Of a stretch of DNA of 64,000 bases, positions 12,182 through 40,711 are shown piece by piece; the first letter of the stretch is position 1, and the number at the start of each line of letters is the position of its first letter. The position numbers and the translations under genes are program-made. The stretch is from the NCBI GenBank assembly GCA_963702015.1, contig OY969698.1, forward strand, positions 1,958,839-2,022,838, in the 5' to 3' direction. The notes under the pieces were generated by a model, which worked only from the letters and a program-made list of their open reading frames with translations, was not told the origin of the DNA and searched no databases. This DNA is from an uncultured Planctomycetaceae bacterium. GTDB lineage: Bacteria; Planctomycetota; Planctomycetia; Pirellulales; PALSA-1355.

Positions 12182-14502
12182 TCATGCTGGGGATGCATCC
12201 CCGTCCAACACGAATCGCACTTTGCGTGTCAGGTCGGATGGTGAGAACGGCTTTTGAAGCAACGCGTGTGCTTCGTCTTTGACGCCATGCCGCAGAATGG
12301 CGTCGTCGGTGTAGCCGGTCATGTAGAGCACTTTCAAATGCGGATATCCGGCGCGCAAGCGATCGACCAGTTGGCGGCCACCCATCAGCGGCATCACGAC
12401 GTCGGTAACGACCAAATCTAGCGGGCCGGCATGGCGTGCGACTGCGGTGATCGCCTCTAGGCCATTGCTTGCGTCCAGCACCGTGTACCCTTGCTCCTCT
12501 AGATTGAGCCGAACGAGCTCCCTGACGCCATCTTCGTCCTCGACCAGCAGGATTGTCTCCGATCCACGTGTCTTGAGTTGACGAGTTTGCTCAAGTGGTG
12601 CTCGGGATGAAAACTCCGCAACGACGGGAAAGTAGAGTTTGATCGACGTGCCGACGCCCGGCTCGGAATCAACGTCGATGTAACCATCGCTCTGCTTGAC
12701 GATGCCGTGCACGACCGCCAAACCGAGACCGGTTCCCGCGCCCGCTTTCTTGGTCGTGAAGAATGGATCAAACATGCGCGACTTGATTTCCGGAGTAATG
12801 CCCGATCCGGCGTCGGCTACCACAATCATCGCATAACGGCCTGGTCTGCGGTCGGGAAACAGGCGACAGTCTTGCTCGCTCCACTCGATGTTCGAGGATT
12901 CGATCGTCAGTTTTCCGCCTCGAGGCATCGCGTCGCGGGCGTTGAGAACGAGATTGACGACGACTTGTTCGACCTGACCCGGATCGATCCTCACCGGCCA
13001 GATCGCCGGAAAGAGACGGCACCCCAGCTCAATGTCCTCCGTGACGAGCCTCAATAACATCCGGTGAACTTTGTTGATCACCTCGTTGAGATTCAAAACC
13101 ACGGGTTCCAGCAACTGCTTGCGACTGAAAGCCAGCAATTGCTGGGTCAGCATGGCGGCCCGCTCCGCCGCCAGATCAATGTCGTCAACCTTGCTCGCGT
13201 CGGAACTGGTCAGCGATTTGCTCGACTTGAGAGCTTCGCAGGTACAAATGATGACGGTCAGCAGATTATTGAAATCATGCGCCACTCCCCCCGCCAAATG
13301 CCCGACGCTTTCCATCTTTTGCGCCTGCTGGAGCTGCGCTTCCAACAAACTTCGCTGAGTCACATCCCGAGCCAGACAAAGGACGCCGGTGAACCTTCCC
13401 TCGTCGTCGAAGAGCGGGGTGTTGAACCACTCGCAGATGATCGTCCGTCGGTCCTTGGTCAGGTTTTCGTTTGTCGAATGGATGTCCATGTCGCCGGATC
13501 GGATCCGGCTGAGATTGTCTTTTGCCCGCAACCAAACCGCGGGAGGAACGAATTCTTCGAACGGGGGTCCGACGCCAAGCATTTCTTGCTTGCTGTAGCC
13601 GAACATGCGCTCGGCCGTCGGGTTCCAGTCGACAATGCGGTAATCGGCGTCGAGCAGGACGTAGGCCAGCGGCATTCTCTCGATGTGAAGTTGGTGCCGA
13701 GATAGGAGGGCATCCCGCTCGACTGCCAGCCGTCGCTTTTCGGTCACGTCTTCGATCATGCCAACCAAACGTTCGATCCGGCCTTGTTCTCGAACCGGAT
13801 TGCCCCGAATCCAAACCCACCGCACCGACCCGTCGGGCGCAAGACGCGACACTCTGTATCAATGTAGCCGGTCACAAACATGGCCGCGTTTTCACGGGCC
13901 ACCAAATCCTGATCCAGCGGATGAATGCCCTCCATGTAAGAATGGGGGTTGTCGAGGAGACTCTGACAAGAGCGGCCCCAGAGCTCGTCATATCCGGCGC
14001 TGACGTACAGGATCTTCGCTTCCTTCGCATCGATCATCCAAAGGACTTGAGGAACATGTGCCGTCAACTCTTGGACGCGCTGCTCGCTTTGTCGGAAAAG
14101 GTTCTTGAAGTGACTTCGCTCAATGGCATAGCGAATCGCCCGCTCCAACAATTCCGGCTGGAGTTCACCCTTCATCAGGTAGTCTTGAGCCCCTTCTTTA
14201 AGTGCTTGCAACGCCAATGTGATGTCGTCTTTGCCCGTCTGCACGATAATAGGAGGGCCGCAATTTCCGTCCCTCAGAGTCCGCAGAGCGTCCAAGCCCT
14301 CGCTGTCGGGCAAGCCCAAATCAAGCAGAACAACAGACATCGTCCGCTGAGCGAGGATCGCCAACGCTTCGGCCAGCGTCTCGACGTGGGTGATGCGGAA
14401 GCCGGGCGATTTGCTCAGCGCCCTCTGGACCGTGTAGGCATCGCTCGGATTGTCCTCAACCAAGAGGACATCGATCGGCGGCATCTCGTCCATGTCCACC
14501 AC
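12182..14502 (-). CDS. hybrid sensor histidine kinase/response regulator (REC-PAS-PAS-HisKA-HATPase-REC), paralog A, with a 1-nt frameshift near 13833
   Basis: ORFs 13756..14502 (REC+PAS) and 12182..13852 (PAS+HisKA H-box HDFNNLL+HATPase+REC) overlap, and both frames encode the same PAS motif: RVLRP(T)G / RLAPDGSVRWVWIRG. One C is missing in a C-run. Confidence 0.8.
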
Positions 14503-14699
14503 CTATCAACCGGCTCGATGATGTCGCAATTGGTCGAATCTCTCTAGGATCGAAAAACGTATCGCGCTCCGTTTCGACAAACGATCTTGGCGTCGAACCA
14601 CAAGAGAAGCCGATTGGTTCGTCAGTTCCGGCCCTTCCATGGCGGTCTAACGGCTGACCGAGAAAGCTCTCCTTCGAGGCGCGGCGCGGGCGATGGCCA

Positions 14700-14925
14700 C
14701 AGACGCTTTCTCGCAAATGGAGGGGGCCTTTCGAGAGGGCTTTGCCTTGAAAGCCAAATTCAGGCTATCGTGCTGAGCGCGCTGCCGCAAGTGTACGACA
14801 GTCGTGCGTTGGAGTTTCACGGTCCCACCCAATCGGGTGCCCGATGGGACTGTAAAGCGGCTACAGCCTGTCCGCATCGATCGAGCGTGCGATAGAATTC
14901 GTGGTAACGCTGCCGGTCAAAGAGG
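14700..14925 (+). pseudogene. degraded remnant of a second TfoX N-domain gene
   Basis: 14872..14921 (tccgcatcgatcgagcgtgcgatagaattcgtggtaacgctgccggtcaaag) is ~85% identical to the 3' end of the TfoX gene at 12096..12142. Upstream frames show weaker TfoX-like translation fragments broken by stops. Confidence 0.4.
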
Positions 14926-14982
14926 CAAATCGGCAGTGCCAGCCGGAGAACGGAACGAGAAAATGCCGCGGCGGTAAAACTT

Positions 14983-16324
14983 ATGCGACGACTGATAACA
15001 ACGTTGGTCTTGCTGGCGTACTGGGCGGTGGCATTGCCGCCACTGTTTGGCGATCCGCCACCGATCAACCGAGAAGAGCTGGCCAAAACGCTGGTCGGCC
15101 AAATGGCGGCGGGCGATTTCGAAAAGGCTGTCGAACCTTTCGACAAGACGATGAAGCAGGGGTTGACCGCCGCCAAACTGAGGCAAGCCTGGACCGCCAT
15201 CGTCGACCAGTACGGCTCACTGGCAAAAGCGACCGCTACCCGATCCGAAACCGTCAAGCAATTTCACGTGGTCTACGTGAGCTGCGAATTCGGGAGAGGC
15301 AAACTGCTGACGAAGGTCGTCTTCACGGCCGACGGCCAAGTCACGGGCCTGTTCTTTCAACCGTCGGGCGAGTACAAGCCGCCCCCCTACGTCAAGCCGA
15401 AGTCGTTTGAAGAAAGCGAGATCCACGTCGGGCAGGGATTGTTTGTTCTGCCTGGAACGCTGACGTTGCCCAGCGGGGAGGGGCCGTTTCCCGCCGTCGT
15501 CCTGGTTCATGGATCGGGGCCGCACGATCGAGACGAGACGATCGGGCCCAACAAGCCGTTTCGCGATCTGGCCCAGGGGCTGGCTTCGCAAGGCATCGCG
15601 GTGCTGCAGCTACGAGAAAAGGACCAAGGAGCATCCCGTCGCGGTTGCCTTGACGTGGAGTCGAATCACGGTGAAGGAAGAGACCGTCGATGATGCCGCG
15701 GCCGCCGTCAACGCGCTGACCGCCCAGGAGAAAATCGATGGCCGGCGCATTTTCGTGTTGGGCCACAGCCTGGGCGGATCGCTGCTGCCACGCATCGCGG
15801 CGGCCAGTCCTCGCATCGCCGGCTTCATCAGCTTCGCGGGCTCGACGCGCCCGCTGGAGGATCTGGTGCTCGAGCAGACGCGGTATTTGCTATCGCTCGA
15901 CGGCAAGCAGACCGACGCAGGGCAAAAAGCGATCGAAGAGCTCGAACGGCAACGGGCCGAGGTCAAGTCGCCCAAGTTGGCTGTCGATACGCCCGCGGAG
16001 AAACTGCCGCTGGGAGTTCCGGCGAGCTACTGGCTCGACCTACGCGGCTATGCTCCGGCCGAAGCCGCCAAGGCGATCAAGCAGCCGATGCTGATTCTGC
16101 AAGGAGAGCGTGATTATCAGGTGACAATGGACGATTTGCGACTTTGGCGGCAGGCGCTGGAGTCGCGTGAGAACGTGACGTTCATTACTTACCCGACTCT
16201 CAATCATTTGTTCATGGCGGGGGAAGGAAATAGCGTTCCCGCGGAGTATTTCAACGCGGGCAACGTGGCCGAAGAAGTGGTCGATGACATCGCCGGTTGG
16301 ATCAAGGGAATCAAAGCGCCGTGA
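14983..16324 (+). CDS. secreted alpha/beta hydrolase (DUF3887-like N-domain + S33/S9-type serine hydrolase, GHSLGG nucleophile elbow), with a frameshift near 15610
   Basis: ORF 14983..15693 (signal peptide, ...GIAVLQ) and ORF 15509..16324 (...YEKRTKEHPVAVAL...VLGHSLGGS...) join only through a 1-nt frame change. Confidence 0.7.
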
Positions 16325-16402
16325 CTTCGCCTGGGGCGGCCACCGGGATTGCCGCCAAGCCGCCCGCTTCCAACGCCCGGACCGGCAAGCCTTATCTTGA
16401 GT

Positions 16403-19130
16403 TCACGCGGAACTCGTCTGGCAGGCGTCGGCGTCGAGGACGACTCGCACTTTCTTTGCCAAGTCTGACGGTGAAAAGGGCTTTTGCAGAAACGCATGCG
16501 TTTCGACGTCGATCCCTTTCCGCAACATTGCATCGTCGGCGTAGCCGGTCACATAGAGTACTTTCAGATCGGGATAGCGGGGCAGCAGCTGATCGACTAG
16601 TTGGCGCCCGCCCATGACGGGCATCACCACGTCGGTAATGATCAAGTGGAGTGGGCCATCATAGCCGTTGACTACCTCAACGGCTTCTTGCCCGTTGCTG
16701 GCATCCAGCACCGTGTATCCTTGCCGTTCCAAATTACGGCGGACAAGTCCGCACTCCGTCCTCGTCCTCGACGAGCAGAATGGTTTCCGATCCACGCGTC
16801 GTCGGCTGTTGATCGTTTTCGCGCGGCGACTGCAATACCCGTTCCTTTACGGCGGGGAAATAGAGCTTGATCGATGTGCCGACTCCCGGCTCGGAATCGA
16901 CGTCGATCGAGCCCTCGCTCTGCGTGACGATGCCGTGGACGACGGCCAAACCCAGACCGGTTCCTTTGCCGGTTTCCTTGGTGGTGAAGAAAGGATCGAA
17001 CATGCGCGACTGGACGTCCGGAGTCATGCCGGAGCCGGTATCGGCTACGACGATCCTGACGTAACGGCCCGGCCTGCGATCGGGGAATAGCCGGCAGTCT
17101 TGCTCGGTCCAAGTGACGTTCGAGGTTTCGATGGTCACTTTGCCGCCGTGGGGCATTGCGTCACGGGCATTGACGACCAGGTTGACGAAGACCTGCTCGA
17201 TCTGCCCCGGATCGAGCTTGACCGGCCAGATCGATGGAAACAGATGACAACGCAGTTCGATGTCTTCGTTGATGAGCCTCAACAACATCTTGTGAATGTT
17301 TTCGATGACTTCGTTGAGATTCAGAACCATTGGTTCCAGCAATTGCTTGCGACTGAACGCGAGCAGTTGCCGGGTGAGGGTGGCGGCCCGCCGTACGGCC
17401 TGGTCGATGTCGTGAACGGCATTCGCATCCGATTCGTTCAGCGATTCGTTCGACTGAAGTGAATCGCAAGCGCAGATGATGATCGTAAGCAAGTTGTTGA
17501 AATCATGCGCCACGCCACCCGCCAAATGTCCGACGCTTTCCATCTTCTGCGCGTGCTGCAATTGTGTTTCCAACAACTTTCGTGCCGTTACGTCCTGGGC
17601 CAGGCACAGCATGCCGGTAAAGTTTCTGCTATCGTCGAAAAGCGGGGTATTGAACCACTCGCAGGTAATCGTCCGCCCATCCTTGGTCAGGTTTTCGTTG
17701 GTCCAATGGGAGTCCATATCACCCGATCGGATCGCACTGAGCACCTCTTCTCCTTGTGGCCAGACCGCAGGAGGTACGAATTTCTCGAACGGGGGTCCGT
17801 GGCCGAGCATTTCTTCCTTGCTGTAGCCGAAGATCGACTGGGCGGCTGGATTCCAATCGACAATTTGGAAATTGGCGTCGAACAGAAGATAGGCCAGCGG
17901 CATCCGCTCGATATGGAGTTGGAGCCGAGACAAGAGCGTATCGCGTTCCGCCGCGAGACGTCGCTTCTCGGTGACGTCGACCCCGGTCGAGAACAGGAAC
18001 AGGATCTGCCCAGTTTCATCCCGGATTGGCATCATGATGAAGTCGGTGACCCTTTGGCTGCCGTCGGCGACGAAAAATGGCAATTCCGCCCGGTAAATCT
18101 GACCGGCCGCCGCTACGGCCGTGGCTTCCTTGATTCGCTCGATCAGTTCCGCCGACTTATTCCACCAAGGGCACTCCCAAAACAACTTTCCGACGACCTG
18201 ATCCCGGGTGTAACCACAGATCTCGAGTGCCAGTCGGTTCGGTTCGATGAGGGCGCCATCCAACGTCATGATGCCGGCAAAGAGCGGCCCCTGCTCGAAG
18301 AAAGCCCGAAATTTTGCGTTCGCCATCGACGTTTCGGTCAGCAGCACTCGTTCGCGCTCCTCGGACCTTCGCCGTTCGGTCAAATCCTGGGTGATTCCGA
18401 GATGCGAGACCGAGCCGTCGAGCTTGGGCAGTGGAGCCGCCACGCATTCCACGCTGCGACGAGTTCCCTTCAGTCCAATGATGTCGAACGCCAAGGTGCC
18501 ATTTTGCCGCTGAAGGACGCCATCGTGAAAAGCCTGATACTCGTCCCGAAATTCCGGGGCGATCAGACGGAAGAAGCTCTGGCCGATGATATCCTCCGGC
18601 CTGTCGGCTTCGACCAGGCGTAGCCCTGCGGCGTTCATCTCCAGCACCGTTCCATCGGGCGCAAGCAGCTTGATACACTGCGGGGTCGTATTGATGATGG
18701 CCCTCAGTTGCTGCTCGCTCTCCCGGAGCGCTTTGGCCGAGCGGTCTCTCTCGATCACATGGCGAATAGTCCGGCGAAGGTTGCCACCTTGGAGTTCACT
18801 CTTGACGAGATATTCCTGCGCTCCCCCTTGGGCCGAATGGACGGCCAACTCGTCGTCGTCGCTGGCGGTCAACACGATCACCGGAACGCCTGGGACAAGG
18901 GCGCGGAGCTTGCCGAGCATCGCCAGGCTTTGCGAATTGGGCAGCTCCAGAGCCAGCAGAACAACTGAGATTTCTCTCTCGGAGAGGATCGTCAGCGCGT
19001 CTCCCAGGTGTTGGACATGGGTGACACGAAAGAGGGGTGATGCGCTGAGCAGCTTCTGAGGCAATAAGGCGTCAGTCGCGTTGTCCTCGATTAAGAGAAC
19101 TTGAATAAGTGGCGTCTCATCCATATCCAC
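16403..19130 (-). CDS. hybrid sensor histidine kinase/response regulator (REC-PAS x3-HisKA-HATPase-REC), paralog B, with a frameshift near 16755
   Basis: The 798-aa ORF 16734..19130 and the 130-aa REC ORF 16403..16795 overlap. The joined sequence ...LLVEDEDGVR(E)LVRRNLERQGYTVLDASNG matches paralog A. The HisKA-HATPase-REC part is ~75% identical to paralog A. Confidence 0.8.
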
Positions 19131-19597
19131 CGCCTCTTGCCCTCATTTTTCAGCAGCGCGAAGTGCGCTCAATATATGAAGTATTTCCTTCTATTCACAC
19201 CCGCGAACCGCTTTGCCGGTCAAGAATCTCCTTCACATTCGGCCGCGCGTAAACATGCCATGAAGCCTGCGCACGCAACCAGCCCGGCGGAACGCCACCG
19301 GGGTCAAAAAGCATGACCGCCGACGGCCGCAGGGGTACAATGATCGTGAAAATGGCGGGCGTGGTTCCGCTCGGTATTAGCAAGGATTCAAGCGCCGGAC
19401 AGGCAGTGCGGCCGAACAGCCGCTGAAAAAACGCGATTCCAACCGCAAAGCTTTGATGCGGTTATGCTTGGCGTTATCATGCCAGTCGCTGGCCAACGGG
19501 GTGTCCGACCTTGGCACGATGCTTACTTTATTTGCCGACGCCGTGATCCGTGGGTCAAGACCGCTGCCGCGTCCGTCCCCCCCCAACGAGTTCTCTG

Positions 19598-20986
19598 ATG
19601 TCTGCCGCCGCCAACAAAGCTGACCCAACGACTGCTTCCAGCACTTCCCCGGCCAGCCTCGAGCGGGTGCAACAGAACCTTGCTGCCCTGGGCGTGAAAT
19701 TCGTCCTGGCCCAGTTCGTCGATATCCATGGTGTGGCCAAGACCAAGAGTGTGCCACTAGCGCATCTGGCCGACGTGGTGACCGGCGGCGGAGCGGGCTT
19801 CGCCGGTTTCGCGGTCTGGGGTCTGGCCATGCAGCCGCACGATCCCGACTTCATGGCCCGCGGCGACCTGTCGACGGTCACGCTCCTTCCGTGGCAGCCC
19901 GGCTACGCCCGAATCGTTTGCGTGGGCCACGTCCAGAATCGCCCTTACCGGTTCGACACCCGCTGGATCTTGATGCAGCAGTTGGAACGATTGAAAGCGT
20001 TGGGGCTGACCTGCTTCACTGGGCTCGAGCCCGAGTTCATGCTGTTGCGCCGGACCGACGACGGACGGATCGTGCCGGCCGATGCGACCGACAACCTCGA
20101 TAAACCGTGCTACGACTACAAAGGCTTGTCGCGAAGCCGCCACGTGCTCGATGCTCTGGCCGAGGCGCTGATGGCCGTGGGGATCGACGTCTATCAGATC
20201 GACCACGAGGACGCGAACGGGCAATTCGAAATCAATTACGACTATTCCGACGCGCTGACGTCGGCCGATCGGATGATCCTGGTGCGGATGGCGGCGAGCG
20301 AAATCGCGGCCCGGCACGGAGTGATCTGCTCGTTCATGCCCAAGCCGCTGGCGAATCGTACCGGCAGCGGCATGCACATGCATATTTCACTGGGTGGCGC
20401 CGAGGGAAATCGCTTCGCGGGCAGTGACGATCCGCGCGGCCTCGGCCTTTCGGCCATGGCCTATCAGTTTCTGGCCGGATTGCTCGCGCACGCGCCGGCG
20501 CTATCGGCGCTGTGTGCCCCGACCGTCAATTCGTATAAGCGGCTGGTGGTCGGCCGATCGCTGTCTGGGGCGACTTGGGCGCCGGCCTACATCTCCTATG
20601 GCGACAACAATCGTTCGTCGATGGTCCGCATCGCGCCCGGTCGCGTCGAGCTGCGCGTGGCCGACTCGGGCTGCAATCCCTATCTGGCGACCGCCGCGGC
20701 GATTGCCGCCGGCATGGACGGTATCGAGCGCCGGCTCGACCCCGGCGCGCCACAGAACTTCAATCACTATGACCGCACGCCCGAGGAACTGTCGGCCGCG
20801 GGGATTGGCGTGCTTCCCCAGTCGCTGCACGAAGCGATCGAAGCGCTCGAGTCCGACGGACTGTTCGCCCAGCAGCTTGGGCATGATTTCATCGCCGAAT
20901 TCTGTCGCCTCAAGCGGATGGAATGGACCGAATATCAGCGGCATGTTTCCGATTGGGAAGTCCGGCAATATCTCGAGTTCTTTTAA
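19598..20986 (+). CDS. glutamine synthetase family protein, gamma-glutamylmethylamide synthetase (GmaS)/GlnT-like
   Basis: 463 aa from the Met at 19598. GS beta-grasp plus catalytic domain (HMHISL..., GCNPYLA). First gene of a tight operon with GATase-2, GXGXG and FMN-GltS-like genes. Confidence 0.75.
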
Positions 20987-21010
20987 ATTTGCGCGGAGCG
21001 ACGCGAAACG

Positions 21011-21904
21011 ATGTGCGGCATTGTGGGACTTTTGATCAAGCGACCCGAGCAGCGTCACCTGCTGGGCGAGTGGATTGCGCCGATGCTCGTGTGCATGGGC
21101 GCGCGTGGCCCCGACTCGGCTGGGCTGGCCACGTTCACGCCTCCGACGGGCGACTCATTTCGCTTGAGCTTGTTCGCCCACGACGAAGAATTTTCCTGGA
21201 ATGCTTTGGCCGACAAGCTCACCAAAGCCGGATTCGCGATTCACGTCCACCAGGCGCGCGGGCGGCACGCCGTCTTCGGTGCGCACGCCCGACACGCCGA
21301 TTTGAAAAACTGGCTGTCGACCCACGCCCCGCCGGTTCACATTCTCTCGGCCGGGCATTCCATCGAAGTTTACAAAGACGAAGGAACGCCAGCCGAGCTC
21401 AGCGAGCGTTACCAATTCGCGAAATTGACCGGCAGCCATGCCGTGGGGCACACGCGCATGGCCACCGAATCGGCCGTCTCGCCCTTGCACGCTCATCCCT
21501 TTACGGCGGGTTCCGATTTCTGTCTGGTCCATAACGGCTCGCTCTCGAATCATCACAGTTTGCGGCGGATGCTCGAGCGTCGGGGAGTTCTTTTCGAGAC
21601 CGACAACGATACGGAGGCCGCCTGTCGCTTTCTGGAATGGCGGATGCGCGAGGGTGACGATCTGGAGACGGCGCTCGAACAGGCGTTTGTCGAACTCGAC
21701 GGTTTTTACACGCTGCTGATGGCGACGGCCGACAAGCTGGTGCTGGCGCGCGACGCCTTTGCCTGCAAGCCCGCCGTGGTGGCCGAAACCGATGACTATG
21801 TGGCCATCTCGTCGGAGTTTCGCGGACTTGCCGGGTTGCCTGGCGTCCGTCACGCTCGACTCTTCGAGCCGATGCCGCAGGAGATTTATTCATGGAGCGT
21901 CTGA
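21011..21904 (+). CDS. class II glutamine amidotransferase (MgsA/GlxB-like)
   Basis: N-terminal MCGIVG nucleophile motif; 297 aa. Confidence 0.8.
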   Translation: MCGIVGLLIKRPEQRHLLGEWIAPMLVCMGARGPDSAGLATFTPPTGDSFRLSLFAHDEEFSWNALADKLTKAGFAIHVHQARGRHAVFGAHARHADLKNWLSTHAPPVHILSAGHSIEVYKDEGTPAELSERYQFAKLTGSHAVGHTRMATESAVSPLHAHPFTAGSDFCLVHNGSLSNHHSLRRMLERRGVLFETDNDTEAACRFLEWRMREGDDLETALEQAFVELDGFYTLLMATADKLVLARDAFACKPAVVAETDDYVAISSEFRGLAGLPGVRHARLFEPMPQEIYSWSV

Positions 21905-22620
21905 TCCCCGCACCCTCGGAGACTTCTCATGCCCGGCCGCTCGAGTTGGACGTCATCCGGCTGGGCGTGCGTGGCGTCAATCGCGCTTTGCATCGCCCGC
22001 TGGCCGAGATCGGCAGTCGCGAGTTGCGCATTCTGAACGCCTGCGGCGAACATAATCTGGCCGTGGGACTGACCCAGCCGATCGATGTCCACATCGAAGG
22101 CCACGCCGGTTACTACATCGGCGGCATGAATCAGCTCGCCTCGATCACCGTGCACGGCAACGTCGGTTGGGGAGTCGGCGAGAACGCGATGTCGGGCATG
22201 ATCCGCGTGAAGGGATGCGCGTCGGAAGGGGTTGGGGCCTCGGCCCACGGCGGGCTCGTCGTGGTCGAAGGCGACACCTCCAGCCGCTGCGGCATCTCAC
22301 TGAAAGGTGCCGATATCGTAATCGGCGGGAGCGTGGGACACGCCTCGGCCTTTATGGCGCAAGCCGGCCGTCTGATCATCTGCGGCGATGCCGGCCACGG
22401 ACTGGGCGACTCGCTGTACGAGGCGGTGATTTACGTGCGCGGCGAAATCAAGAGCTTGGGCGCCGACGCCCGCGAAGAGCCGCTGGGTGAATCCGACATC
22501 GCAGCATTGACCGAGCTTTTGGCTCGGGCGCAGTTCGACGCCCGTCCGCGCGATTTTCGCCGCGTCGCCTCCGCGCGCTCGCTTTATCATTGGAACAGCG
22601 ACCATCGGCAGGAGTATTGA
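21892..22620 (+). CDS. GXGXG-motif protein (MgsB/GlxC-like; glutamate synthase alpha C-terminal-domain family)
   Basis: Repeated glycine-rich beta-helix motifs (VHGNVGWGVGENAMSGMIRVKG..., IGGSVGHASAF...); start overlaps the upstream gene. Confidence 0.8.
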   Translation: MERLIPAPSETSHARPLELDVIRLGVRGVNRALHRPLAEIGSRELRILNACGEHNLAVGLTQPIDVHIEGHAGYYIGGMNQLASITVHGNVGWGVGENAMSGMIRVKGCASEGVGASAHGGLVVVEGDTSSRCGISLKGADIVIGGSVGHASAFMAQAGRLIICGDAGHGLGDSLYEAVIYVRGEIKSLGADAREEPLGESDIAALTELLARAQFDARPRDFRRVASARSLYHWNSDHRQEY

Positions 22621-22624
22621 CGAC

Positions 22625-23995
22625 ATGCCGCTCGAACAAGAGCCTCTCTCGCCGGCACAGGCCGCGGCGCTGGAAGAAAGCGCCACATTCAATCGCGGCA
22701 CGATCTCTTATGTGCATCAGGCCGCCGAGCGTGGTTTGTACGATATCCGCGGACTGGGAGCCAAAAGACGCGTCCCCTCGTTCGACGACCTGGTCTTTCT
22801 GACCGCGTCGGCTTCGCGCTATCCGCTCGAGGGATATCGCGAAAGTTGCGTTACCGAAACGATTTTGGGCGCCCGATGCGCCGAGCGGCCGGTGCGACTG
22901 GCCGTGCCGATCACGATCGCAGGCATGAGCTTCGGCGCGCTGTCGGCCAACGCCAAGGAAGCGATCGGCCGAGCTGCAACGGCGCTCGGCACGTCGACCA
23001 CGACAGGCGACGGCGGCATGACGCCCGAGGAACGCCGCTCGAGCAAAACCCTGGTCTATCAGTGCCTGCCATCCCGTTATGGATTCAATCCCGACGACTT
23101 ACGGCAGGCCGACGCGATCGAAATCGTGATCGGGCAGGGGGCCAAGCCAGGGGGCGGAGGCATGCTGCTGGGTCAAAAAATCAGCCCACGCGTGGCCGAG
23201 ATGCGCACGCTTCCCGAAGGGATCGACCAGCGCAGCGCCTGCCGCCATCCCGATTGGACCGGGCCCGACGACTTGAAGATCAAGATCGAAGAGTTGCGCG
23301 AGATCACCGATTGGAAAGTGCCGGTCTACGTCAAGATGGGAGCCACTCGCGTGCGCGACGACGTGAAGCTGGCCGTTAAGGCTGGAGCCGACGTGGTCGT
23401 GATCGACGGCATGCAAGGAGGGACCGCCGCGACGCAACAGGTGTTTATCGAACATGCCGGCATTCCCACGCTGCCGGCGGTGCGGCTGGCGGTCGAAGCG
23501 CTCGAAGAATTGAACGTGGTTGGTGAGGTGCAATTGATCGTGTCGGGTGGCATTCGCACGGGCGCCGACGTGGCCAAGGCGCTGGCCTTGGGCGCCGACG
23601 CGGTAGCGATCGGACAAGGCGTGCTGTTTGCGCTCGGTTGCAATCGACCCACCTGGCGAGAGGGGGATCGCGAGCTCGACGCCACGGCCGACTATGCCCG
23701 GCTTGGAGCCGCGCCGGGCTGCTGCCATCACTGTCACACCGGCCTTTGTCCCGTCGGCATTACGACGCAAACGCCGGCGCTCGAGCGCCGTCTCACGCCC
23801 GAGCAGGGGGCGCGCTGGCTGGAAAACTACTTGCGGGTGCTGACCATGGAACTGACCACGCTGGCCCGGGCCTGCGGCAAATCGAATGTGCATCACCTGG
23901 AACGCGAAGACCTGGTTGCCTTGACGGTCGAAGCCGCCGCCATGGCGAAGCTACCGTTGGCCGGCACCGATTGGATTCCTGGCGTGACACCCTAA
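22625..23995 (+). CDS. FMN-dependent glutamate synthase-family protein (MgsC/GlxD-like)
   Basis: Glutamate-synthase central FMN-domain signatures (VIGQGAKPGGGGMLLG, VVIDGMQGGTAATQ, IVSGGIRTGADVAKALALGADAV); 456 aa. Confidence 0.8.
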   Translation: MPLEQEPLSPAQAAALEESATFNRGTISYVHQAAERGLYDIRGLGAKRRVPSFDDLVFLTASASRYPLEGYRESCVTETILGARCAERPVRLAVPITIAGMSFGALSANAKEAIGRAATALGTSTTTGDGGMTPEERRSSKTLVYQCLPSRYGFNPDDLRQADAIEIVIGQGAKPGGGGMLLGQKISPRVAEMRTLPEGIDQRSACRHPDWTGPDDLKIKIEELREITDWKVPVYVKMGATRVRDDVKLAVKAGADVVVIDGMQGGTAATQQVFIEHAGIPTLPAVRLAVEALEELNVVGEVQLIVSGGIRTGADVAKALALGADAVAIGQGVLFALGCNRPTWREGDRELDATADYARLGAAPGCCHHCHTGLCPVGITTQTPALERRLTPEQGARWLENYLRVLTMELTTLARACGKSNVHHLEREDLVALTVEAAAMAKLPLAGTDWIPGVTP

Positions 23996-24005
23996 AGCAG
24001 GCGCG

Positions 24006-25136
24006 ATGGAAAAACCGTTCGACGTGATCGTGATCGGCGTTGGCACGATGGGGGCAGCCGCCTGCTATCATCTGGCCCGGCGCGGAGTGCGCGTGCTGGG
24101 ACTCGAAAAATTCGACGTGCCGCACAACCACGGTTCTGGACACGGCTTTTCGCGTATGATCCGCCTCGCCTATCACGAACATTCCGATTATGTGCCGCTG
24201 CTGCGGCGGGCGTACCAGCTTTGGTACGAAGCGGAACACACCAGCGGCCAGAAACTGCTCTACGTCACCGGTGGGCTGTATGCCGGCGCGGCGACCAGCG
24301 AGCGGTTGGCCCGCACTCGGCTGGCGGCCGAGCGATTTGACCTGCCCTTTGAGCATCTCGATCTTTCAGAGATTCGGCATCGGTTTCCACAGTTCCATTT
24401 GCCCGACGACTTTGCGGCCATTTACGAGCCCGAGGCTGGCTTCGTCAAGCCGGAGTTGGCGATTGCCACGCACGTGCGGCTGGCGCTGCTGGCCGGCGCC
24501 GAGATTCACACGCAGGAGTCGGTCAGCCATTGGCAGGCCGACCAGCACGGCGCGAGCGTCGTAACCCCTCGGGCGTCCTATCATGCCGATCGGCTCGTCT
24601 TCGTCGGCGGCGCGTGGAGTGGCAAGCTGCTGAGTGACTTGGGCGTGCAGCTCAACGTCACGCGGCAAACTGCTGGCTGGACGTGGCCGCGCCGGCCCGA
24701 ACTGTTCGAGTTGGGCCGTTTTCCGGTCTGGTCGATCGCCCAGGCCGACGGCTCGAGCAATTACGGCTTTCCGATGTTGCCCGACAATCCAGGGTTCAAG
24801 ACCGGGCATCATTGGCGTTCGCAACCGATCGATCCCGACACGGTCGAGCGCGGCGTTTTGCCCGGCGATGAGGAAGATTTTCGCTACCCGATCGAGCGGT
24901 TCATCCCCGATGCCGCAGGGCCCACGTTGGCGGTGCGGACCTGTCTTTACACGAATTCGCCGGATGCAAACTTCATCATCGATCACCATCCGCGACATCC
25001 GCGCGTCACACTGGCCTGCGGTTTCAGCGGCCACGGCTTCAAGTTCATGCCGGTGATCGGCGAAATCTTGAGTCAACTGGCAATGGGCGAGCAGTCCGCG
25101 CTGCCGATCGAATTTTTGAGCCTGAAGCGGTTCTGA
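24006..25136 (+). CDS. monomeric sarcosine oxidase / N-methyl-L-tryptophan oxidase-like FAD-dependent oxidase
   Basis: N-terminal FAD Rossmann VIVIGVGTMGAAACYHLA; ~376 aa, the size of MSOX/MTOX. Last gene of the operon. Confidence 0.7.
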   Translation: MEKPFDVIVIGVGTMGAAACYHLARRGVRVLGLEKFDVPHNHGSGHGFSRMIRLAYHEHSDYVPLLRRAYQLWYEAEHTSGQKLLYVTGGLYAGAATSERLARTRLAAERFDLPFEHLDLSEIRHRFPQFHLPDDFAAIYEPEAGFVKPELAIATHVRLALLAGAEIHTQESVSHWQADQHGASVVTPRASYHADRLVFVGGAWSGKLLSDLGVQLNVTRQTAGWTWPRRPELFELGRFPVWSIAQADGSSNYGFPMLPDNPGFKTGHHWRSQPIDPDTVERGVLPGDEEDFRYPIERFIPDAAGPTLAVRTCLYTNSPDANFIIDHHPRHPRVTLACGFSGHGFKFMPVIGEILSQLAMGEQSALPIEFLSLKRF

Positions 25137-25230: not shown

Positions 25231-26685
25231 TCACGCCAAAATCGGCGTGACGACTTTCCCCTCGACGTCGGTCAGTCGAAAGTCGCGGCCCTGGAAGCGG
25301 AAGGTCAGACGGGTGTGATCGATGCCCAGACAATGCAAGATCGTGGCATTGAGATCGTGGATGTGAACCGGCTGATCGACGATGTTGTAACTGAAATCAT
25401 CCGTCACGCCATGGACGAATCCCGGCTTGATGCCGCCACCGGCCAGCCACATGCTGAAGCAACGGCCATGGTGGTCGCGTCCGTAGTCGTCTTGCAGCCC
25501 GCCCTGCCCATAAACGGTGCGGCCGAATTCCCCTCCCCAGACAATCAGCGTGTCGTCGAGCAGTCCGCGCTGTTTGAGATCAGTGATCAGCGCGGCCTGC
25601 GGTTGATCGACGTCGCGGCATTGCAGCGGAATGTTGCTGGGCAGCGTGCCGTGATTGTCCCAACCGCGGTGATAGAGCTGGATGAATCGCACCCCACGCT
25701 CGACCAGCCTCCGAGCCAGCAGGCAATTGGCGGCGAACGTGCCGGGCCGGCTCACGTCGGGCCCATACAGATCGAGCACGGCGGGGGATTCGTGGGAAAA
25801 ATCGATCAGCTCGGGAACCGACGTCTGCATGCGATAAGCCAACTCGAACTGCGCGATCCGGGTGACGATTTCAGGATCGCCGGTCTCGTCGAACTGTCGC
25901 TGGTTCAATTGCGCCAGCCGATCGAGCATCTGCCGCCGCAAGCCGCGATCGATGCCCGCGGGATCGGACAGATAGAGCACGGCGTCGCCGCCGCTGCGGA
26001 GTTTGACTCCCTGATGGTTGGAGGGCAAAAAGCCGCTGCCCCAGAGTCGCTCCAATAATCCCTGGTTGCTATCCTTGCCGGATCCTTGCGAGATCATGAC
26101 CACGAACGTCGGCAGGTCGGCGTTGGTGCTGCCCAAGCCGTAGGATAGCCAGGCACCCAGCGAGGGGCGGCCGGGCTGTTGCGAGCCGGTCTGGATGAAC
26201 GTGATCGCCGGATCGTGATTGATGGCCTCGGTGTGCATCGACCGCACCAGGCACATGTCATCGACCACTTTGGCCGTGTGGGGCAAAAGCTCGCTCACGC
26301 TCATGCCGCATTGGCCGTGCTGGGCGAATTTGAATTTCGACCCGATCAGCGGAAAGCTCTTCTGACCCGAGGTCATGCCGGTCAACCGCTGGCCCATGCG
26401 GATCGACTCGGGCAACTCGCTGCCATGTTTTTCGCGAACGAGCGGCTTGTCGTCGAACATCTCGAGCTGCGAAGGGCCGCCCGATTGGAACAGATAGATC
26501 ACCCGTTTGGCCTTGGGCGCAAAGTGCGGCAACGCCGCCGGACCGCCGGAAGTCGCGGTCGTTTCGGCCGTCGCCTGATCGCCCAGCAACGAAGCCAGCG
26601 CCGCAGCGCCCAGGCCAGTGGCCGTGCTACCGAGAAAATGCCGCCGCGTGAGCAGCCGGCTGAATTCAATCCGTGGATCCATCAC
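25231..26685 (-). CDS. DUF1501 domain protein (sulfatase-like, Tat signal)
   Basis: Twin-arginine leader [11 protein letters not shown]. Paired downstream of a DUF1549/DUF1553 gene, as is usual in Planctomycetota. Confidence 0.8.
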
Positions 26686-26697
26686 GCACCTTTTTGG

Positions 26698-29600
26698 CTA
26701 TTCCTTGGTGATCGTTTCGTCCAGGTTCAAAATCACGCTGCCGACCACCGTCCAAGCGGCCAACTCGGCCGGATCGAGCGACGGATCGACGGCCGACGCT
26801 CCGACATGCAGCAGCTCCTGGGCCTGCGCCGGCGCTGCGCGAAAACGCTCCGTCGTCTCGGCCAACAGCGGCAACAACGCCTCGCTGTCGCCGGCACGGG
26901 CCGGCCGGGCTGCCGCCAGGAGAAACGCAAAGTCGAGCCGGCTGGCCGGCGTCTCGCCCCCGGCGGTCAGCACTCGTTCGGCGAGCTTGCGCGCGGCTTC
27001 GACATAGGTCGGATCGTTCATCAACACCAGCGACTGCAGCGGAGTGTTGGTGCGGGCACGGCGGATCAAACAGGTTTCGCGATCGGGCGCGTCGAAAGTC
27101 GCCAGGCTTGGCGGCGGGCAGGTACGCTTCCAAAAAGTGTAGAAGCTGCGCCGGTAAAGATTCGCACCGGTCTCCTTCTTATAAACGGCGCTGTGTTCGA
27201 CCGAAACATCTTGCCACAAGCCGTCGGGTTGATAGGGATAGACGCTGGGACCGCCGATCTCCCAGGCCAACAGCCCACTGATTGCCAAGGCATTGTCGCG
27301 GACCATTTCAGCCGGCAGGCGAAACCGTGCACCGCGCGCCAGCAGTAAATTTTTGGGATCGTGCTCGCGGGCGGTGGCGCTGGCGCTGGACGACTGTCGA
27401 TAGGTCGCCGACATCACGATCAATTTCTGCAAAGCGCGGTAATCCCAACCGCCGCTGACAAACTCGCGCGAGAGCCAATCGAGCAGTTCGGGGTGGGTCG
27501 GCCACGCGCCCTGCGAACCAAAATCTTCGACCGTTTCGACGATCCCATTGCCGAAATACATCTGCCAGCAGCGATTCACGGCCACCCGGGCCGTTAGCGG
27601 ATGAGCGGGATCGGTCAACCAGCGGGCCACGCCCAGCCGGTTCGCCGGCGCACCGACCGGCAACGGCGGCAGCACAGCCGGCAGGTGCGGGGCAACAGGC
27701 TCGCCCGGCTGATCGTATTGTCCTCGCTTGAGCAGAAAGGCCTGCCGGGGGGGCGACATCTCTTGCATCACCATGGTGGCCGGCGGCGGCGCCGCCAGCG
27801 CCATCTTCAATCGCTTCAAGTCGTCGGCAATCGCGCGGTGCGGAGCGTCGAACTTCGCCAGATAATACTGCCGCACGTGCTCCTGCTGCTCGGCGGTTTG
27901 TTCGGCCGCCGGTTGGACGATGATCTGACGCACGTCAGCCAAGGCCTGTTCGGCGGCGAGTTGCTTCACGCCATCGGCATTCAAAGCGGTCGAATAAAAC
28001 GCCAGATCGGCGATGCGGCCGATGAACGGTTCCGTGGTCGTGCGGCGGCCAATTCGCAATGGTTGATCGGTCGCGATCGAGCCTTGCAGCTTGTCGTTGA
28101 CCGTTTCGACGGCCACCGACGTGCCGTCGACGAAAAACGTAAAGCCCGACGCGTGGCCGGAGCCGTTGTAACTGACCACGACATGATGCCAAGCGCCGAG
28201 TGTGACGGGAGTCGCTATCACCTTCAGGCCATCCTCGGGCCAACGATGAATCAGATGCATGGCTGGCCGGCCCTGCTCGACGATCAAATCGAAGCCGCGA
28301 TAACCGTCGGCCTGATCCATTTTGGACGTGACCGTGCTTGCCTCGAGCGAGGTGGGATAGATCCAGACGCTGATCGAAAATGGCTGCGCTCCATCTAACG
28401 ACACCGCGTCGCCCAATTCGACGTAGGTCTGGCCGTCGAATTCCAGTGCTTTGCTCCAACGTTTTTCGCCCCACCGCGCTGTCCCAACGACCGGCGCGCT
28501 GCGGCCGGGCTGCACGCGGTCGCTGATCATCTCGCCCGCTCCCTCATCCAGCGGAAAGCTGGCAACGGGCCGGACAGCGGGCTCGGGCAGAGGCGCCGCG
28601 CGGGTGGCGTCTTCCCACGCTTTCAGCGGCTCGGCAATCGCCTGCTCGCGCTCCAGGCGACGCTCTTCCAGATCGGCAATCTGCCGCGAAAGCCGCTCGC
28701 GTAACAGCGCATCCAACGGCGACGCCGCCTGGACCACCGGGGTCGCGGCCGCATTCTGGTTGTAGTTCAGCGGCCCCTCGGGCACGTTGTTGAAGAACGA
28801 AAAGAAACCGTAATACTCGCGCTGCGTCAGCGGATCGAACTTGTGATCGTGACAACGGGCACACTGCATCGACAAACCCAGAAACACGGTGGCAGTGGTA
28901 TGGACGCGATCGGCGACATATTCGACGCGATACTCTTCCGGGATGATTCCCCCTTCCGACGTAATGACGTGATTTCGTCCAAAGGCGGTCGCCAATTGCT
29001 GCTCGGGCGTAGCCCCCTCCAACAGATCGCCCGCCAGTTGTTCGGTGATGAACTGGTCGTAAGGCATGCCGATGTTGAAGGCGTTGATCACCCAATCGCG
29101 CCAGGCCCATTGGGTGCGCTCGCCATCGTTGTTGTAGCCATGCGTGTCGGCGTAGCGAGCCAGGTCGAGCCAGCTCATCGCCATCCGTTCGGCATAGCGC
29201 GGCGAGGCCAACAGCCGGTCGACCACTTTTTCATAGGCGTCCGCGGAAGTATCGCTTAAAAAAGCGTTGAGCTCGGCGGGCGTGGGTGGGAGCCCGGTCA
29301 GATCGAGCGTCACACGGCGCAGCAGCACGTGGCGATCGGCCTCGGGCGACGGCGCAAGCCCTTCAGCTTCCAGCCGGGCCAGAACAAAGTGGTCGATGCT
29401 GTTGCGGGGCCAGTCGGCCTGCTTGACCTGCGGCAAAGGCTGATCCTTGGGCGGCACAAATGCCCAATGCGGATGATACTCAGCCCCTTCGTCGATCCAT
29501 TGCCGCAAAAGCTGCTTGTCGCGTTCGGAGAGTGATTTGTTGCCGTCGGGCGGCGGCATGACCATATCGGCATCGGTCGACAGAATGCGCCGCACCAGCT

Positions 29601-29850
29601 CGCTCTCTTCGCTCTTGCCGGGCACGATTGCGACATTGCCCGACTCTAAGGCCGCGAGCGCCACCTCGCGCACGTCGAACCGCAGGCCAGCTTGACGCGT
29701 TTCGGCGTCTGGCCCATGACAGCGAAAGCAGACGTTCGACAGAATCGGGCGAATGTACCGCCCATAGTCGATTTGTGCCGGTAGTCCCGGTTCGGCCGCT
29801 TGGGCAGACGCGGCGGAGACGAGCAGAATGATCGCCAGGCGAATCAGCAC
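26698..29850 (-). CDS. PSCyt1/PSCyt2(DUF1549)/PSD1(DUF1553) protein with an internal LamG-like domain
   Basis: 1050 aa. Signal peptide; N-terminal planctomycete cytochrome-c-like region (CFRCHGPD); long DUF1549/DUF1553 architecture. GTG start at 29850 with GGAG 7 nt upstream. Confidence 0.8.
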
Positions 29851-38241: not shown

Positions 38242-38643
38242 ATGCACAAGAATTCGAAACCGATTCCCGTCCTGGGTCAGTTGCAGAGCGAGGTCCTCGA
38301 GCTGGTTTGGCAGCGAGGCGAGGCGACCGTGGCCGACGTGCTCAAGCATCTCGGCAAGAATCGCACGATGATCTACACCACCGTGCTGGTGGCGATGCAA
38401 AAGTTGGAGAAGAAGGGCTGGCTGACTCATCGCGTGGAAGGCCGGGCCTATGTCTATCGGCCGGCTCGTTCGCGGGCCAGTGCCCAGGCCGGCGTGTTGA
38501 GCGAAATGCTCGACGCGGTTTTTGGCGGCGATCCCAAACTGCTGGTGACCCAACTACTCGACGCCCGGCCTTGGACGCCCGACGAGTTGGCCGGATTGCG
38601 GCATTTGATCGAGGCCCGCCGGAAGGAGAAACGCCATGCGTGA
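38242..38643 (+). CDS. BlaI/MecI/CopY family transcriptional repressor
   Basis: 133 aa. Winged-helix N-terminus (SEVLELVWQRGEATVADVLKHL...TTVLVAMQKLEKKGWL); stop overlaps the start of the M56 gene by 8 nt. Confidence 0.8.
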   Translation: MHKNSKPIPVLGQLQSEVLELVWQRGEATVADVLKHLGKNRTMIYTTVLVAMQKLEKKGWLTHRVEGRAYVYRPARSRASAQAGVLSEMLDAVFGGDPKLLVTQLLDARPWTPDELAGLRHLIEARRKEKRHA

Positions 38644-40711
38644 CTTGTGGAACCTGCTGCCCGCATCAGGATGGGAGCGCCTGGCGGTCGACGCCGTCTG
38701 GCAGAGCACCGGGATTGCTGCTGTCGCGCTCGTCGCCGCGTGGCTCGTGCGCCGGCGGCCGGCACTGCGGGCGGCGATTCTTCTGTCGGCGGCGGCCCTT
38801 TCGCTCGCCGTTCCGCTGTTGTCGACCGCCGTTCGGTGGAGCGGCGGTGGATTGCTCTCGCCGCCGGATCGCGGCGGCAATTGGACCTTATTGGTCGACC
38901 GTGCGGTTCGTGTGGCCGATCGGCCGGGCGCGACCTTCATGATACCTGCCGACGCCATCACCGAGACGCGAATCGACGCTGGTCCTGCAAAGGCAAAGCC
39001 GATTACGGCCGGTTGGGCATTTCGTTCCTGGCCTTGGTTGGCCGGCTGCTGGCTCGTGGCGTCGGGGTTTCTGACCCTACGCCTTTTGCGTGGGGTCGTT
39101 GCCGTGCGGCGCTGGATCAAGATGGCCACGCCCTGCCACGACCGAAAAATCGAGTCGGCACTTGCCCGGGCCGCCGAGGCGATTGGAGCGCGTCGGCCGG
39201 AATTGCTCTGGAGCCCGGCGTTCGACTCGCCGGCGCTGGTCGTGCTGGGTCGAGCCCGGCTGCTGCTGCCGGCCGAGATGCCGGCGGACGTCGATTGGTT
39301 CGCGATTTTTTGTCACGAGCTTGCACATCGTGCCCGACGGGACGACCTGAGCCGATTGGTGGTCGAGCTGGCGATGATCACGTTGCCGTGGCAGCCGCTG
39401 TTGTGGGTCGTGCGGCGACGGTTTCGAGCGGCCTGCGAAGAGGCGTGCGACGACTGGGCCGTGGCCGCCGGTGCCGATCCGGTCGAGTTCGCCTCGCTGC
39501 TGGTGGCGTTGGTCCCCGAGCGTCGCCCGGCGTTTGCATTGGGCATGGCCGAGAGTGCGTCGGCTACTCGACATCGCATCCTGCGGCTCTTGGCGATGCA
39601 GGGAGCGGTGCATCCGCGGTTGGGGATGCTGCTCGGTGCGGCGGGCTGCGTTGCGGCCGTCGCCCTGGCGATTACGTTGGCCCTGTTGCAATTCAATTCG
39701 CGGGCGCGGCTGAGCGATCCGATTGGGCGGGAGAGGGATTGGGCTCCCGACCGGGCCCCAGGCACGCCCCGCGGTACCGCGGCGGATGCCAAAGCGATCC
39801 CGGCCACCGAGGGCAATCGCCCGGCCGGGCCTCCGTGGGGCCTTACGCCGCTGCCAACGGCCGTCGCGCGGGCGGCCGGCGCGCTGCCGAAGAACGCCGG
39901 TCGGCCGGCGCCTTATGTCATCGAGCCGCCGGACATTCTGCTGATCGACGCCGTGAAGTTGGTCCCCAAATCTCCTTATCACATCGAACCGCTCGACGTG
40001 CTCAAGGTCCTGGTGGCGAATCCCCTCATCGAACAACCAATCAGCGGGCCATACCCCGTCGATACCGAGGGAGCAATCGATCTTGGACCGGCCTATGGCA
40101 AAGTGTTGGTCGCAGGCCAAACGGTCGACGAAGCTCGTAAGACCGTGGAAACCCATCTGAAGACTGTGCTCCCAGATCCACAGGTTTCCCTCAGTTTGAG
40201 CCAAACCGATGGCCAGCAGCAGATTGCCGGCGAACACCTGGTCGGACCCGACGGCACGGTCAACGTTGGAACCTATGGCACGGTCTACGTGGCCGGTCTG
40301 ACGATTGCCGAGGCGAAAGCGGCCGTCGAAGCTCAATTGTCGAACTACCTGGAACAACCACGAGTGTCGGTCGACGTCTTTAGCTACAACAGCAAGGTCT
40401 ATTACGTCATCACACGCGGGGCCGGCGGTGACACGATCGTCCGCGTGCCGATCACGGGCAACGAAACGGTTCTCGATGCCCTGGCACAACAGCCCGGCGG
40501 AATCATTCCCAACCCGAACGATTGCTGGGTCTGGGTAGCTCGTTCGGCGAGCCGGCCGGCAACGGCCGAGCCGCAGCGCGGCGGCGAAGGGCGAACCTTC
40601 CACGGAGCGGGACGTCTTCGCCACTGCGGACGGCGTGGTCGACGAAGTGATGGTCGACCACGGCGATTGGGTCAGACAAGGCCAGGTGCTTGTCCGGTTG
40701 CACAATCCTGA
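38636..40711 (+). CDS. BlaR1-like M56 family membrane metallopeptidase fused to polysaccharide-export (Wza-like SLBB) domains; C-terminal boundary uncertain
   Basis: TM segments plus HExxH (FCHELAHRARRDD). C-terminal part has Poly_export/SLBB-like repeats (YVIEPPDILLIDAVKLVPK..., GTVNVGTYGTVYVAGLTIAEAKAAVEAQL). The last ~55 codons read as out-of-frame junk. Confidence 0.6.
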   Translation: MRDLWNLLPASGWERLAVDAVWQSTGIAAVALVAAWLVRRRPALRAAILLSAAALSLAVPLLSTAVRWSGGGLLSPPDRGGNWTLLVDRAVRVADRPGATFMIPADAITETRIDAGPAKAKPITAGWAFRSWPWLAGCWLVASGFLTLRLLRGVVAVRRWIKMATPCHDRKIESALARAAEAIGARRPELLWSPAFDSPALVVLGRARLLLPAEMPADVDWFAIFCHELAHRARRDDLSRLVVELAMITLPWQPLLWVVRRRFRAACEEACDDWAVAAGADPVEFASLLVALVPERRPAFALGMAESASATRHRILRLLAMQGAVHPRLGMLLGAAGCVAAVALAITLALLQFNSRARLSDPIGRERDWAPDRAPGTPRGTAADAKAIPATEGNRPAGPPWGLTPLPTAVARAAGALPKNAGRPAPYVIEPPDILLIDAVKLVPKSPYHIEPLDVLKVLVANPLIEQPISGPYPVDTEGAIDLGPAYGKVLVAGQTVDEARKTVETHLKTVLPDPQVSLSLSQTDGQQQIAGEHLVGPDGTVNVGTYGTVYVAGLTIAEAKAAVEAQLSNYLEQPRVSVDVFSYNSKVYYVITRGAGGDTIVRVPITGNETVLDALAQQPGGIIPNPNDCWVWVARSASRPATAEPQRGGEGRTFHGAGRLRHCGRRGRRSDGRPRRLGQTRPGACPVAQS

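Follow-up and report, generated by a model that had tools for sequence, protein, structure and literature searches.

Methylamine is a widespread source of nitrogen and carbon, and its consumers are tracked in the environment by the marker gene gmaS. Calls of the N-methylglutamate (NMG) pathway usually demand the mgdABCD genes of NMG dehydrogenase. The canonical clusters are arranged as mgdABCD-gmaS-mgsABC in Methyloversatilis universalis FAM5 and as gltB123-gmaS-soxBDAG in Methylocella silvestris (PMC8292978, PMC3160333). We analyzed a 64 kb stretch (64,000 nucleotides, hereafter the window) of contig OY969698.1 from an uncultured Planctomycetaceae bacterium, in which a gmaS-mgsABC block is followed by a gene for a single-subunit flavoenzyme of the monomeric sarcosine oxidase (MSOX) and N-methyl-L-tryptophan oxidase (MTOX) type. 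Based on the analyses below, we put at roughly 0.6 the probability that this five-gene operon serves methylamine use through a variant NMG pathway with a single-subunit oxidase.

The window shares with the canonical clusters the order gmaS-mgsA-mgsB-mgsC, the signature residues of GmaS and orthologue identities of 46-84%, and the first two steps of the pathway are presumably identical. It differs in the 376-amino-acid (aa) MSOX/MTOX-type oxidase encoded past mgsC and in the lack of MgdABCD within the 64 kb. Whereas in the canonical last step (MgdABCD, EC 1.5.99.5-type) an acceptor takes up the electrons and folate the C1 unit, the step inferred for the window would consume O2 and release free formaldehyde and H2O2. 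The five predicted genes are as follows:

19598..20986, + strand, gmaS, gamma-glutamylmethylamide synthetase (glutamate--methylamine ligase), 462 aa, alternative start GTG at 19550; Gln-synt_C, TIGR03105
21011..21904, + strand, mgsA, class-II glutamine-amidotransferase-like subunit of N-methylglutamate synthase, 297 aa, N-terminus MCGIVG; GATase_6, GATase_7
21892..22620, + strand, mgsB, GXGXG-motif subunit, 242 aa, overlapping mgsA by 13 nt; PF01493 GXGXG
22625..23995, + strand, mgsC, subunit with an FMN-binding glutamate-synthase domain, 456 aa; PF01645 Glu_synthase, 323 bits
24006..25136, + strand, monomeric MSOX/MTOX-family FAD amine oxidase, candidate N-methyl-L-glutamate oxidase, 376 aa, beginning 10 nt past mgsC; DAO, NF008425

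All five open reading frames (ORFs) lie on the plus strand between positions 19598 and 25136, separated by 24, -13, 4 and 10 nt. These are exactly the coordinates and the tight co-directional packing reported by a first-pass annotation made from the DNA alone, and our profile searches reproduced its domain assignments for all five proteins. We surveyed 80 loci from a genome scan and 80 from a metagenome scan, with 173 loci fetched in total (L-numbers below). Seven further loci, which come from different genomes or metagenomes and have other flanking genes, contain the same five-gene block; the arrangement is therefore not due to chance. The closest relative compared, L088, has DNA collinear with the window from within gmaS to the exact stop codon of the oxidase, while other genes occupy both of its flanks. 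Co-transcription of the five genes as one operon appears the likelier case.

The first protein scored 624 bits against TIGR03105 (cut-off 470) and 335 bits against Gln-synt_C. Its best solved relative is a glutamate--methylamine ligase (PDB 9qur, 633 bits), followed by Rhodovulum GmaS (7cql, 333 bits), as against 241 bits or less for true glutamine synthetases (GS). The structure of RhGmaS revealed that GmaS differs from GS at the ammonium-binding Asp50', replaced by Ala48', and at the catalytic Glu of the Glu-flap, replaced by Trp300, while the catalytic Asp177, Glu186 and Arg312 are kept (PMC7948447). Once an offset of 20 residues caused by a tag had been corrected, the PDB sequence agreed with that paper at all 14 residues it names; 13 of these are the same in the window protein, the sole change being W189 to Y. 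A69 corresponds to Ala48' and W327 to Trp300, with D202, E211 and R339 at the catalytic positions. The type I GS encoded in the same window retains the Asp (D110 in 'GFDGSS') at the Asp50' position. There are thus three GS-superfamily genes within 64 kb, the other two being:

45096-47270, + strand, type III glutamine synthetase (GSIII_N and Gln-synt_C-ter)
47420-49009, + strand, type I glutamine synthetase (GSI), adjoining the GSIII gene, about 20 kb downstream of gmaS

Since the window has these separate genes for true GSIII and GSI 20 kb from gmaS, the gene at 19598 is not the housekeeping GS. Judged by its scores and signature residues, the protein is a GmaS and not an ammonium-assimilating GS, with a predicted preference for methylamine. 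The first-pass annotation had described it as GmaS-like, without GSIII or GSI features, and had named grouping with ammonium-assimilating GS as the result that would speak against this; both the 633-bit match to 9qur and the replacements at A69 and W327 place it on the GmaS side.

The order gmaS-mgsA-mgsB-mgsC is kept in more than 100 loci of both scans, drawn from many phyla and including Proteobacteria, Acidobacteriota, Verrucomicrobiota, Cyanobacteria, Spirochaetia, Actinobacteria and Planctomycetia. GmaS of the window is 62-70% identical to its counterparts in the genome loci, 41-69% in some metagenome loci, and 63-72% identical to GmaS of canonical methylamine clusters. MgsA, which carries the N-terminal Cys (translation MCGIVG), is 46-76% identical to the same-position gene of over 100 gmaS-mgsABC loci; for MgsB, whose position is likewise conserved, the values are 49-82%, and for MgsC 67-84% across loci of many phyla, canonical mgdABCD-gmaS-mgsABC clusters included. 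The earlier assignment of the trio as an MgsABC homologue is thus borne out by Pfam domains, the MCGIVG start, gene order and identity to canonical clusters. By these comparisons the trio is orthologous to MgsABC of the canonical clusters and is predicted to form N-methylglutamate. We regard the identity of genes 1-4 as gmaS-mgsABC as highly probable.

The fifth protein was searched against family models and solved structures. It scored 428 bits with NF008425, the N-methyl-L-tryptophan oxidase model (cut-off 257), and 281 bits with TIGR01377, the monomeric sarcosine oxidase model, which is below the cut-off of 480. Its PDB matches were SOX (7exs, 281 bits), MSOX (1el5, 260 bits) and MTOX (2uzz, 205 bits), with E=1e-82 to solved homologues, a match that leaves no doubt about the fold. 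Its N-terminus carries a GxGxxG motif and no signal peptide. In an alignment to Bacillus MSOX, with residue numbering verified at 14 known positions, the MSOX residues H45, R49, R52, Y55, Y254, K265, H269, C315, Y317 and K348 were all conserved. The covalent flavin adenine dinucleotide (FAD) site Cys315 corresponds to C313, the O2-site Lys265 to K265, Tyr317 to Y315, H269 is kept, and the carboxylate clamp Arg52/Tyr55/Lys348 is represented by R53/Y56/K346. These results agree with the first-pass placement of the protein in the MSOX/MTOX family and set it apart from glycine and D-amino-acid oxidases, the outcome that annotation had said would count against it.

The substrate pocket of MSOX is formed by Phe100, Met245 and Tyr254, and the Met245/Thr239 position acts as a specificity switch between sarcosine and N-methyltryptophan (PMC12582975). 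The window oxidase has R100/S243/Y253 here, that is, Arg for Phe100 and Ser for Met245, with two of the three pocket residues changed. Such a pocket would be larger and more basic, as might suit a substrate with an acidic side chain. Compared with Bacillus SoxB (1el5) and the thermostable SOX (7exs), the window oxidase shares full-length alignment at 260-281 bits, the FAD Cys, the catalytic residues and the carboxylate clamp; it differs in its score below the TIGR01377 cut-off, in Arg and Ser at Phe100 and Met245, in belonging to a separate planctomycete/soil clade, and in its genomic context of methylamine genes rather than creatinine or sarcosine genes. With E. coli MTOX (SolA, 2uzz) it shares the NF008425 assignment, which is membership of a hidden Markov model (HMM) family only, and a small polar residue at the Met245/Thr239 position. 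The substrates of MTOX are N-methyl-L-amino acids that bear a side chain, and the window oxidase is proposed to carry out this chemistry. The window oxidase differs from the E. coli enzyme in scoring only 205 bits to it and in falling outside the SolA branch, and E. coli solA stands alone, without gmaS or mgs genes beside it. In the oxidase tree, a bootstrap of 99 sets the planctomycete/soil family apart from MSOX, SOX 7exs and E. coli SolA; support is 100 for the pair formed by the window and L001 oxidases, and also 100 for a subfamily around the L090 oxidase.

In most gmaS-mgsABC loci the four mgd genes precede the block, and in some 'delta-proteobacterial' metagenome-assembled genomes (MAGs) they come after it. 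Three of the four are assigned by NCBIfam to the SoxB, SoxD and SoxA families; the fourth, a putative SoxG/MgdD without an NCBIfam match, was assigned from its conserved position. Such soxB/D/A/G-like mgdABCD genes adjoin gmaS-mgsABC in 62 of the 173 fetched loci, none of which has the oxidase. Eight loci, the window and L175 among them, have an MSOX-like oxidase directly past mgsC and no adjacent mgd, and no fetched locus has both. The oxidases of seven mgsC-linked loci are 49-83% identical to that of the window. Using MgdA-D from L058 and L011 as tblastn queries (E<=1e-8), we found no MgdABCD in the window, and searches with MgdA-D queries at the same threshold found none within +/-10 kb of the other oxidase-type loci.

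We compared these arrangements on a neighbour-joining tree of concatenated GmaS, MgsA and MgsC from 110 loci, with bootstrap values from a 46-taxon subset. The oxidase-type loci form one clade (bootstrap 81/100) nested among mgd-type loci, and 8/8 clade members with sequence past mgsC have the oxidase there, 10-150 nt downstream. The only other members of the clade are L094, in which the end of the contig truncates the oxidase, and L009, in which only 139 nt of contig remain past mgsC. The nearest homologues bear names from Phycisphaerae (Tepidisphaeraceae, Phycisphaeraceae, Humisphaera). Seven further pairs of GmaS relatives and L090-subfamily oxidases were found on contigs of the same size. 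Because the sister group (Pirellulales, Acidobacteriota, Verrucomicrobiota and others) is of the mgd type, the disappearance of adjacent mgd and the arrival of the oxidase fall on one branch. This one-branch swap is the classic pattern of non-orthologous displacement, and it suggests that a single-subunit oxidase took the place of NMG dehydrogenase in a lineage of Phycisphaerae.

In the route that we propose, GmaS would condense methylamine with glutamate at the expense of ATP to gamma-glutamylmethylamide, and MgsABC would transfer the methylamine moiety to glutamate, yielding N-methyl-L-glutamate, with the released NH3 as the nitrogen gain. The covalently flavinylated single-subunit oxidase would then replace MgdABCD and use O2 to convert N-methylglutamate to glutamate, free formaldehyde and H2O2. 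Such a route would need neither folate nor an electron-transfer partner, and would suit scavenging of methylamine nitrogen better than growth on methylamine. A role of the oxidase in the N-methylglutamate step is rather likely in our estimate; that it is a true N-methyl-L-glutamate oxidase, displacing NMG dehydrogenase in the Phycisphaerae clade (Tepidisphaeraceae/Phycisphaeraceae-like) for O2-dependent, folate-independent nitrogen scavenging, we consider an even call. A full-text search of the literature returned no description of gmaS-mgsABC combined with a monomeric oxidase, in Planctomycetes/Phycisphaerae or otherwise, nor of an 'N-methylglutamate oxidase'.

If a single MSOX-type oxidase does close the cycle, genomes without mgd, as in this soil/freshwater planctomycete clade, would be wrongly scored as incomplete for the pathway. 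The methyl carbon would then end as free formaldehyde with H2O2 instead of methylene-folate with conserved electrons, and planctomycetes would have an internal source of free formaldehyde; to our knowledge, planctomycete C1-transfer genes have so far been without an obvious substrate source. Some members of the very large 'N-methyl-L-tryptophan oxidase' family, so far known only from annotation, would gain their first testable function, part of a large uncharacterized oxidase family would gain a new enzyme activity, and a compact five-gene module would become available for engineered N-methylglutamate turnover.

Several observations weigh against this proposal. The action of the oxidase on N-methylglutamate is something we infer from its sequence and context. 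The L090-type oxidases have a pocket of V100/I245/Tyr with N252, unlike the R100/S245 of the window type, and the two types were united in 0/100 bootstraps; the mgsC-linked oxidases are therefore not monophyletic, and the linked oxidase either evolved fast, was swapped for a paralogue or was recruited repeatedly. Homologues at 54-62% identity lie in unrelated contexts, among them P0005, P0008, P0098 and P0114 (57-62% identical to the window oxidase), and even members of the linked subfamily occur without gmaS linkage, namely L174 and L176, which are 72% and 82% identical to the L090 oxidase. In at least 11 of the fetched loci, moreover, neither mgd nor the oxidase adjoins the block despite ample flanks; a shared downstream gene was looked for in these loci and none was found. 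In Pseudomonas sp. C5pp, gmaS-mgsABC-amt and purU-folD-mgdABCD lie 37.7 kb apart (PMC8292978). That strain, which uses methylamine as a nitrogen source, resembles the window in having gmaS-mgsABC without adjacent mgd, and differs in retaining mgdABCD and in having an operon that lacks an MSOX-type oxidase. Because split arrangements are known and at least 11 loci have neither, a missing adjacent mgd is not proof of genome-wide absence, and mgdABCD could lie elsewhere in the genome of the window. It is thus conceivable, although we think it rather unlikely, that gmaS-mgsABC is canonical here, that MgdABCD is encoded at a distance, and that the oxidase is a general N-methyl-amino-acid or sarcosine oxidase riding along. 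The split arrangement, found also among the fetched loci, and the lack of monophyly of the linked oxidases both suit this explanation, as does the finding that relatives of the oxidase are common, mostly unlinked and often beside solute transporters. A passenger gene is harder to reconcile with the clade-wide link, in which the oxidase is present in 8/8 informative members as against 0/62 mgd-type loci with none having both, with the 10 nt spacing between mgsC and the oxidase, and with the collinearity to L088 that stops at the oxidase stop codon between differing flanks.

The operon might instead serve another primary amine, such as ethylamine or a short alkylamine, forming an N-alkylglutamate that is oxidatively dealkylated to the matching aldehyde. 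In vitro, ethylamine, propylamine and hydroxylamine also serve as substrates of GmaS enzymes (PMC7948447), the oxidase pocket is unlike that of the sarcosine-specific MSOX, and some related loci have an APC-family permease and an M20 dipeptidase, one of them with eutBC nearby. We nevertheless consider this improbable, given the identity of GmaS (63-72%) and MgsC (67-84%) to canonical methylamine clusters, the retention of all RhGmaS methylamine-site residues except W189Y, and a window that holds nothing pointing to another amine. An ammonium-assimilation module, in which a GlnT-type GS and a split glutamate synthase stand beside an unrelated oxidase, was rejected as very improbable. In its favour, NCBIfam calls the first protein a 'type III glutamate--ammonia ligase', and the three proteins that follow share homology with GltB domains. 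Against it, the first protein has the replacements of GmaS at both Asp50' and the catalytic flap Glu, the window has separate genes for housekeeping GSI and GSIII, and in most genomes the orthologous block adjoins mgdABCD.

A search with the L090 oxidase revealed a sharply bounded subfamily of about 48 clusters at 71-100% identity, some of them named Tepidisphaeraceae. The unlinked L174 oxidase sits past a PE-PGRS_C-like gene, and that of L176 (region L176 7541-11161) lies 43 nt past a sodium:solute symporter (SSF) gene and has MSOX-like M245/I252, a hint that the enzyme turned to sarcosine-like substrates once outside the methylamine cluster. Unlinked family members often adjoin SSF genes, as in L176, L002 and L007. 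A sequence signature of the linked oxidases was sought in V147, a polar residue 252, non-His324 and non-Asp359. Among the first 120 homologues, the combination of non-His324 and non-Asp359 was confined to the linked oxidases; with more sequences, 3 of 153 other family members shared it, and about one third of the L090 subfamily keep His324, so that the signature is suggestive only.

A different variant may exist in Burkholderiales. Eight loci (L029, L032, L038, L053, L054, L071, L074 and L086) have gmaS-mgsABC without canonical mgdA/C at >40% identity, and all eight carry an upstream DAO-family gene, 25-27% identical to the window oxidase, together with conserved small genes. This DAO-family gene may represent another solution for the last step.

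Upstream of gmaS, the window contains a promoter-like site:

19512..19526, + strand, sigma-54-type -24/-12 promoter-like site TGGCAC-GATGC-TTAC, with the ATG of gmaS 72 nt downstream

The pattern TGGCACN5TTRC has this single match in the 64 kb window, where 0.19 were expected, and at least one match occurred in 18 of 100 shuffles. Similar GG-N10-GC sites are present upstream of gmaS in L001, L088, L008, L090 and L091, and a divergent gene for a sigma-54 enhancer-binding protein lies upstream of gmaS in L001, L088, L008, L090, L091/L092, L094, L175 and L009, the activators of the relatives sharing 59-81% identity with the L090 query protein. The sites and the activator in relatives fit nitrogen control, and the operon is probably sigma-54-dependent and nitrogen-regulated, with 19512..19526 as the putative promoter. 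Two features of the window count against this control: the -12 element is imperfect (TTAC instead of TTGC), and the search with the L090 protein found no adjacent sigma-54 activator in the window. In place of the divergent activator gene (compare L088 7875-9963), positions 12182-19598 hold a segment of about 7.4 kb with the following features:

12182-13852, - strand, PAS hybrid histidine kinase, copy 1, a paralogue about 3 kb from copy 2 (73% identical over 439 aa)
13756-14502, receiver protein
14983-15693, DUF3887 protein
15509-16324, alpha/beta hydrolase
16403-19130, - strand, PAS hybrid histidine kinase, copy 2, interrupted (ORF 16734-19130 plus a receiver ORF 16403-16795 in another frame)

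The first-pass annotation had treated 16403..19130 as one kinase ORF and as a candidate regulator of the operon. Its 2728 nt are not a multiple of 3, so that it is not a single ORF; the C-terminal receiver begins at the end of ORF 16734-19130, with a frameshift at 16734-16795 that is either real (a pseudogene) or a sequencing error. As a conserved regulator the kinase was rejected, in view of the frameshift, the 73% identical paralogue 3 kb away, the absence of the segment from L088, and the sigma-54 activator that occupies this place in eight related loci. Of that annotation as a whole, the GmaS, MgsABC and MSOX/MTOX assignments thus stand, and the kinase, both as one ORF and as conserved regulator, does not.

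In the L090-type subclade, further genes accompany the operon. An APC-family amino-acid/amine permease, which may be an amine importer, adjoins the sigma-54 activator on the upstream side of gmaS (L090 6762-8321, L091 6727-8262, L175 1974-3506, L009 927-2462), and in L090 the ethanolamine ammonia-lyase genes eutBC lie just past it. An M20 dipeptidase-like gene (PRK09104/PRK08201; L090 15715-17133, L091 15906-17330, L175 11149-12565) overlaps the oxidase stop by 4 nt and is probably co-translated with the oxidase; the window has no such gene.

On the downstream side of the window operon, positions 25231-29850 (- strand) encode a DUF1501 protein and a 1050-aa PSCyt1/PSCyt2/Laminin_G_3/PSD1 protein, a planctomycete-typical pair that is convergent to the oxidase and is not kept beside it in relatives; these domains identify the host as a planctomycete. 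ARAGORN called a tRNA-Ser(GGA) at 39155-39241 (+ strand), inside ORF 38636-40711, which encodes BlaR1 M56 peptidase and Poly_export domains; across the whole window no Rfam family reached its gathering score, and the call is likely a false positive. Finally, positions 56396-59380 (+ strand) encode a 994-aa GlcD/GlpC-like fusion of FAD_binding_4 and FAD-oxidase_C with 4Fe-4S dicluster and CCG domains.

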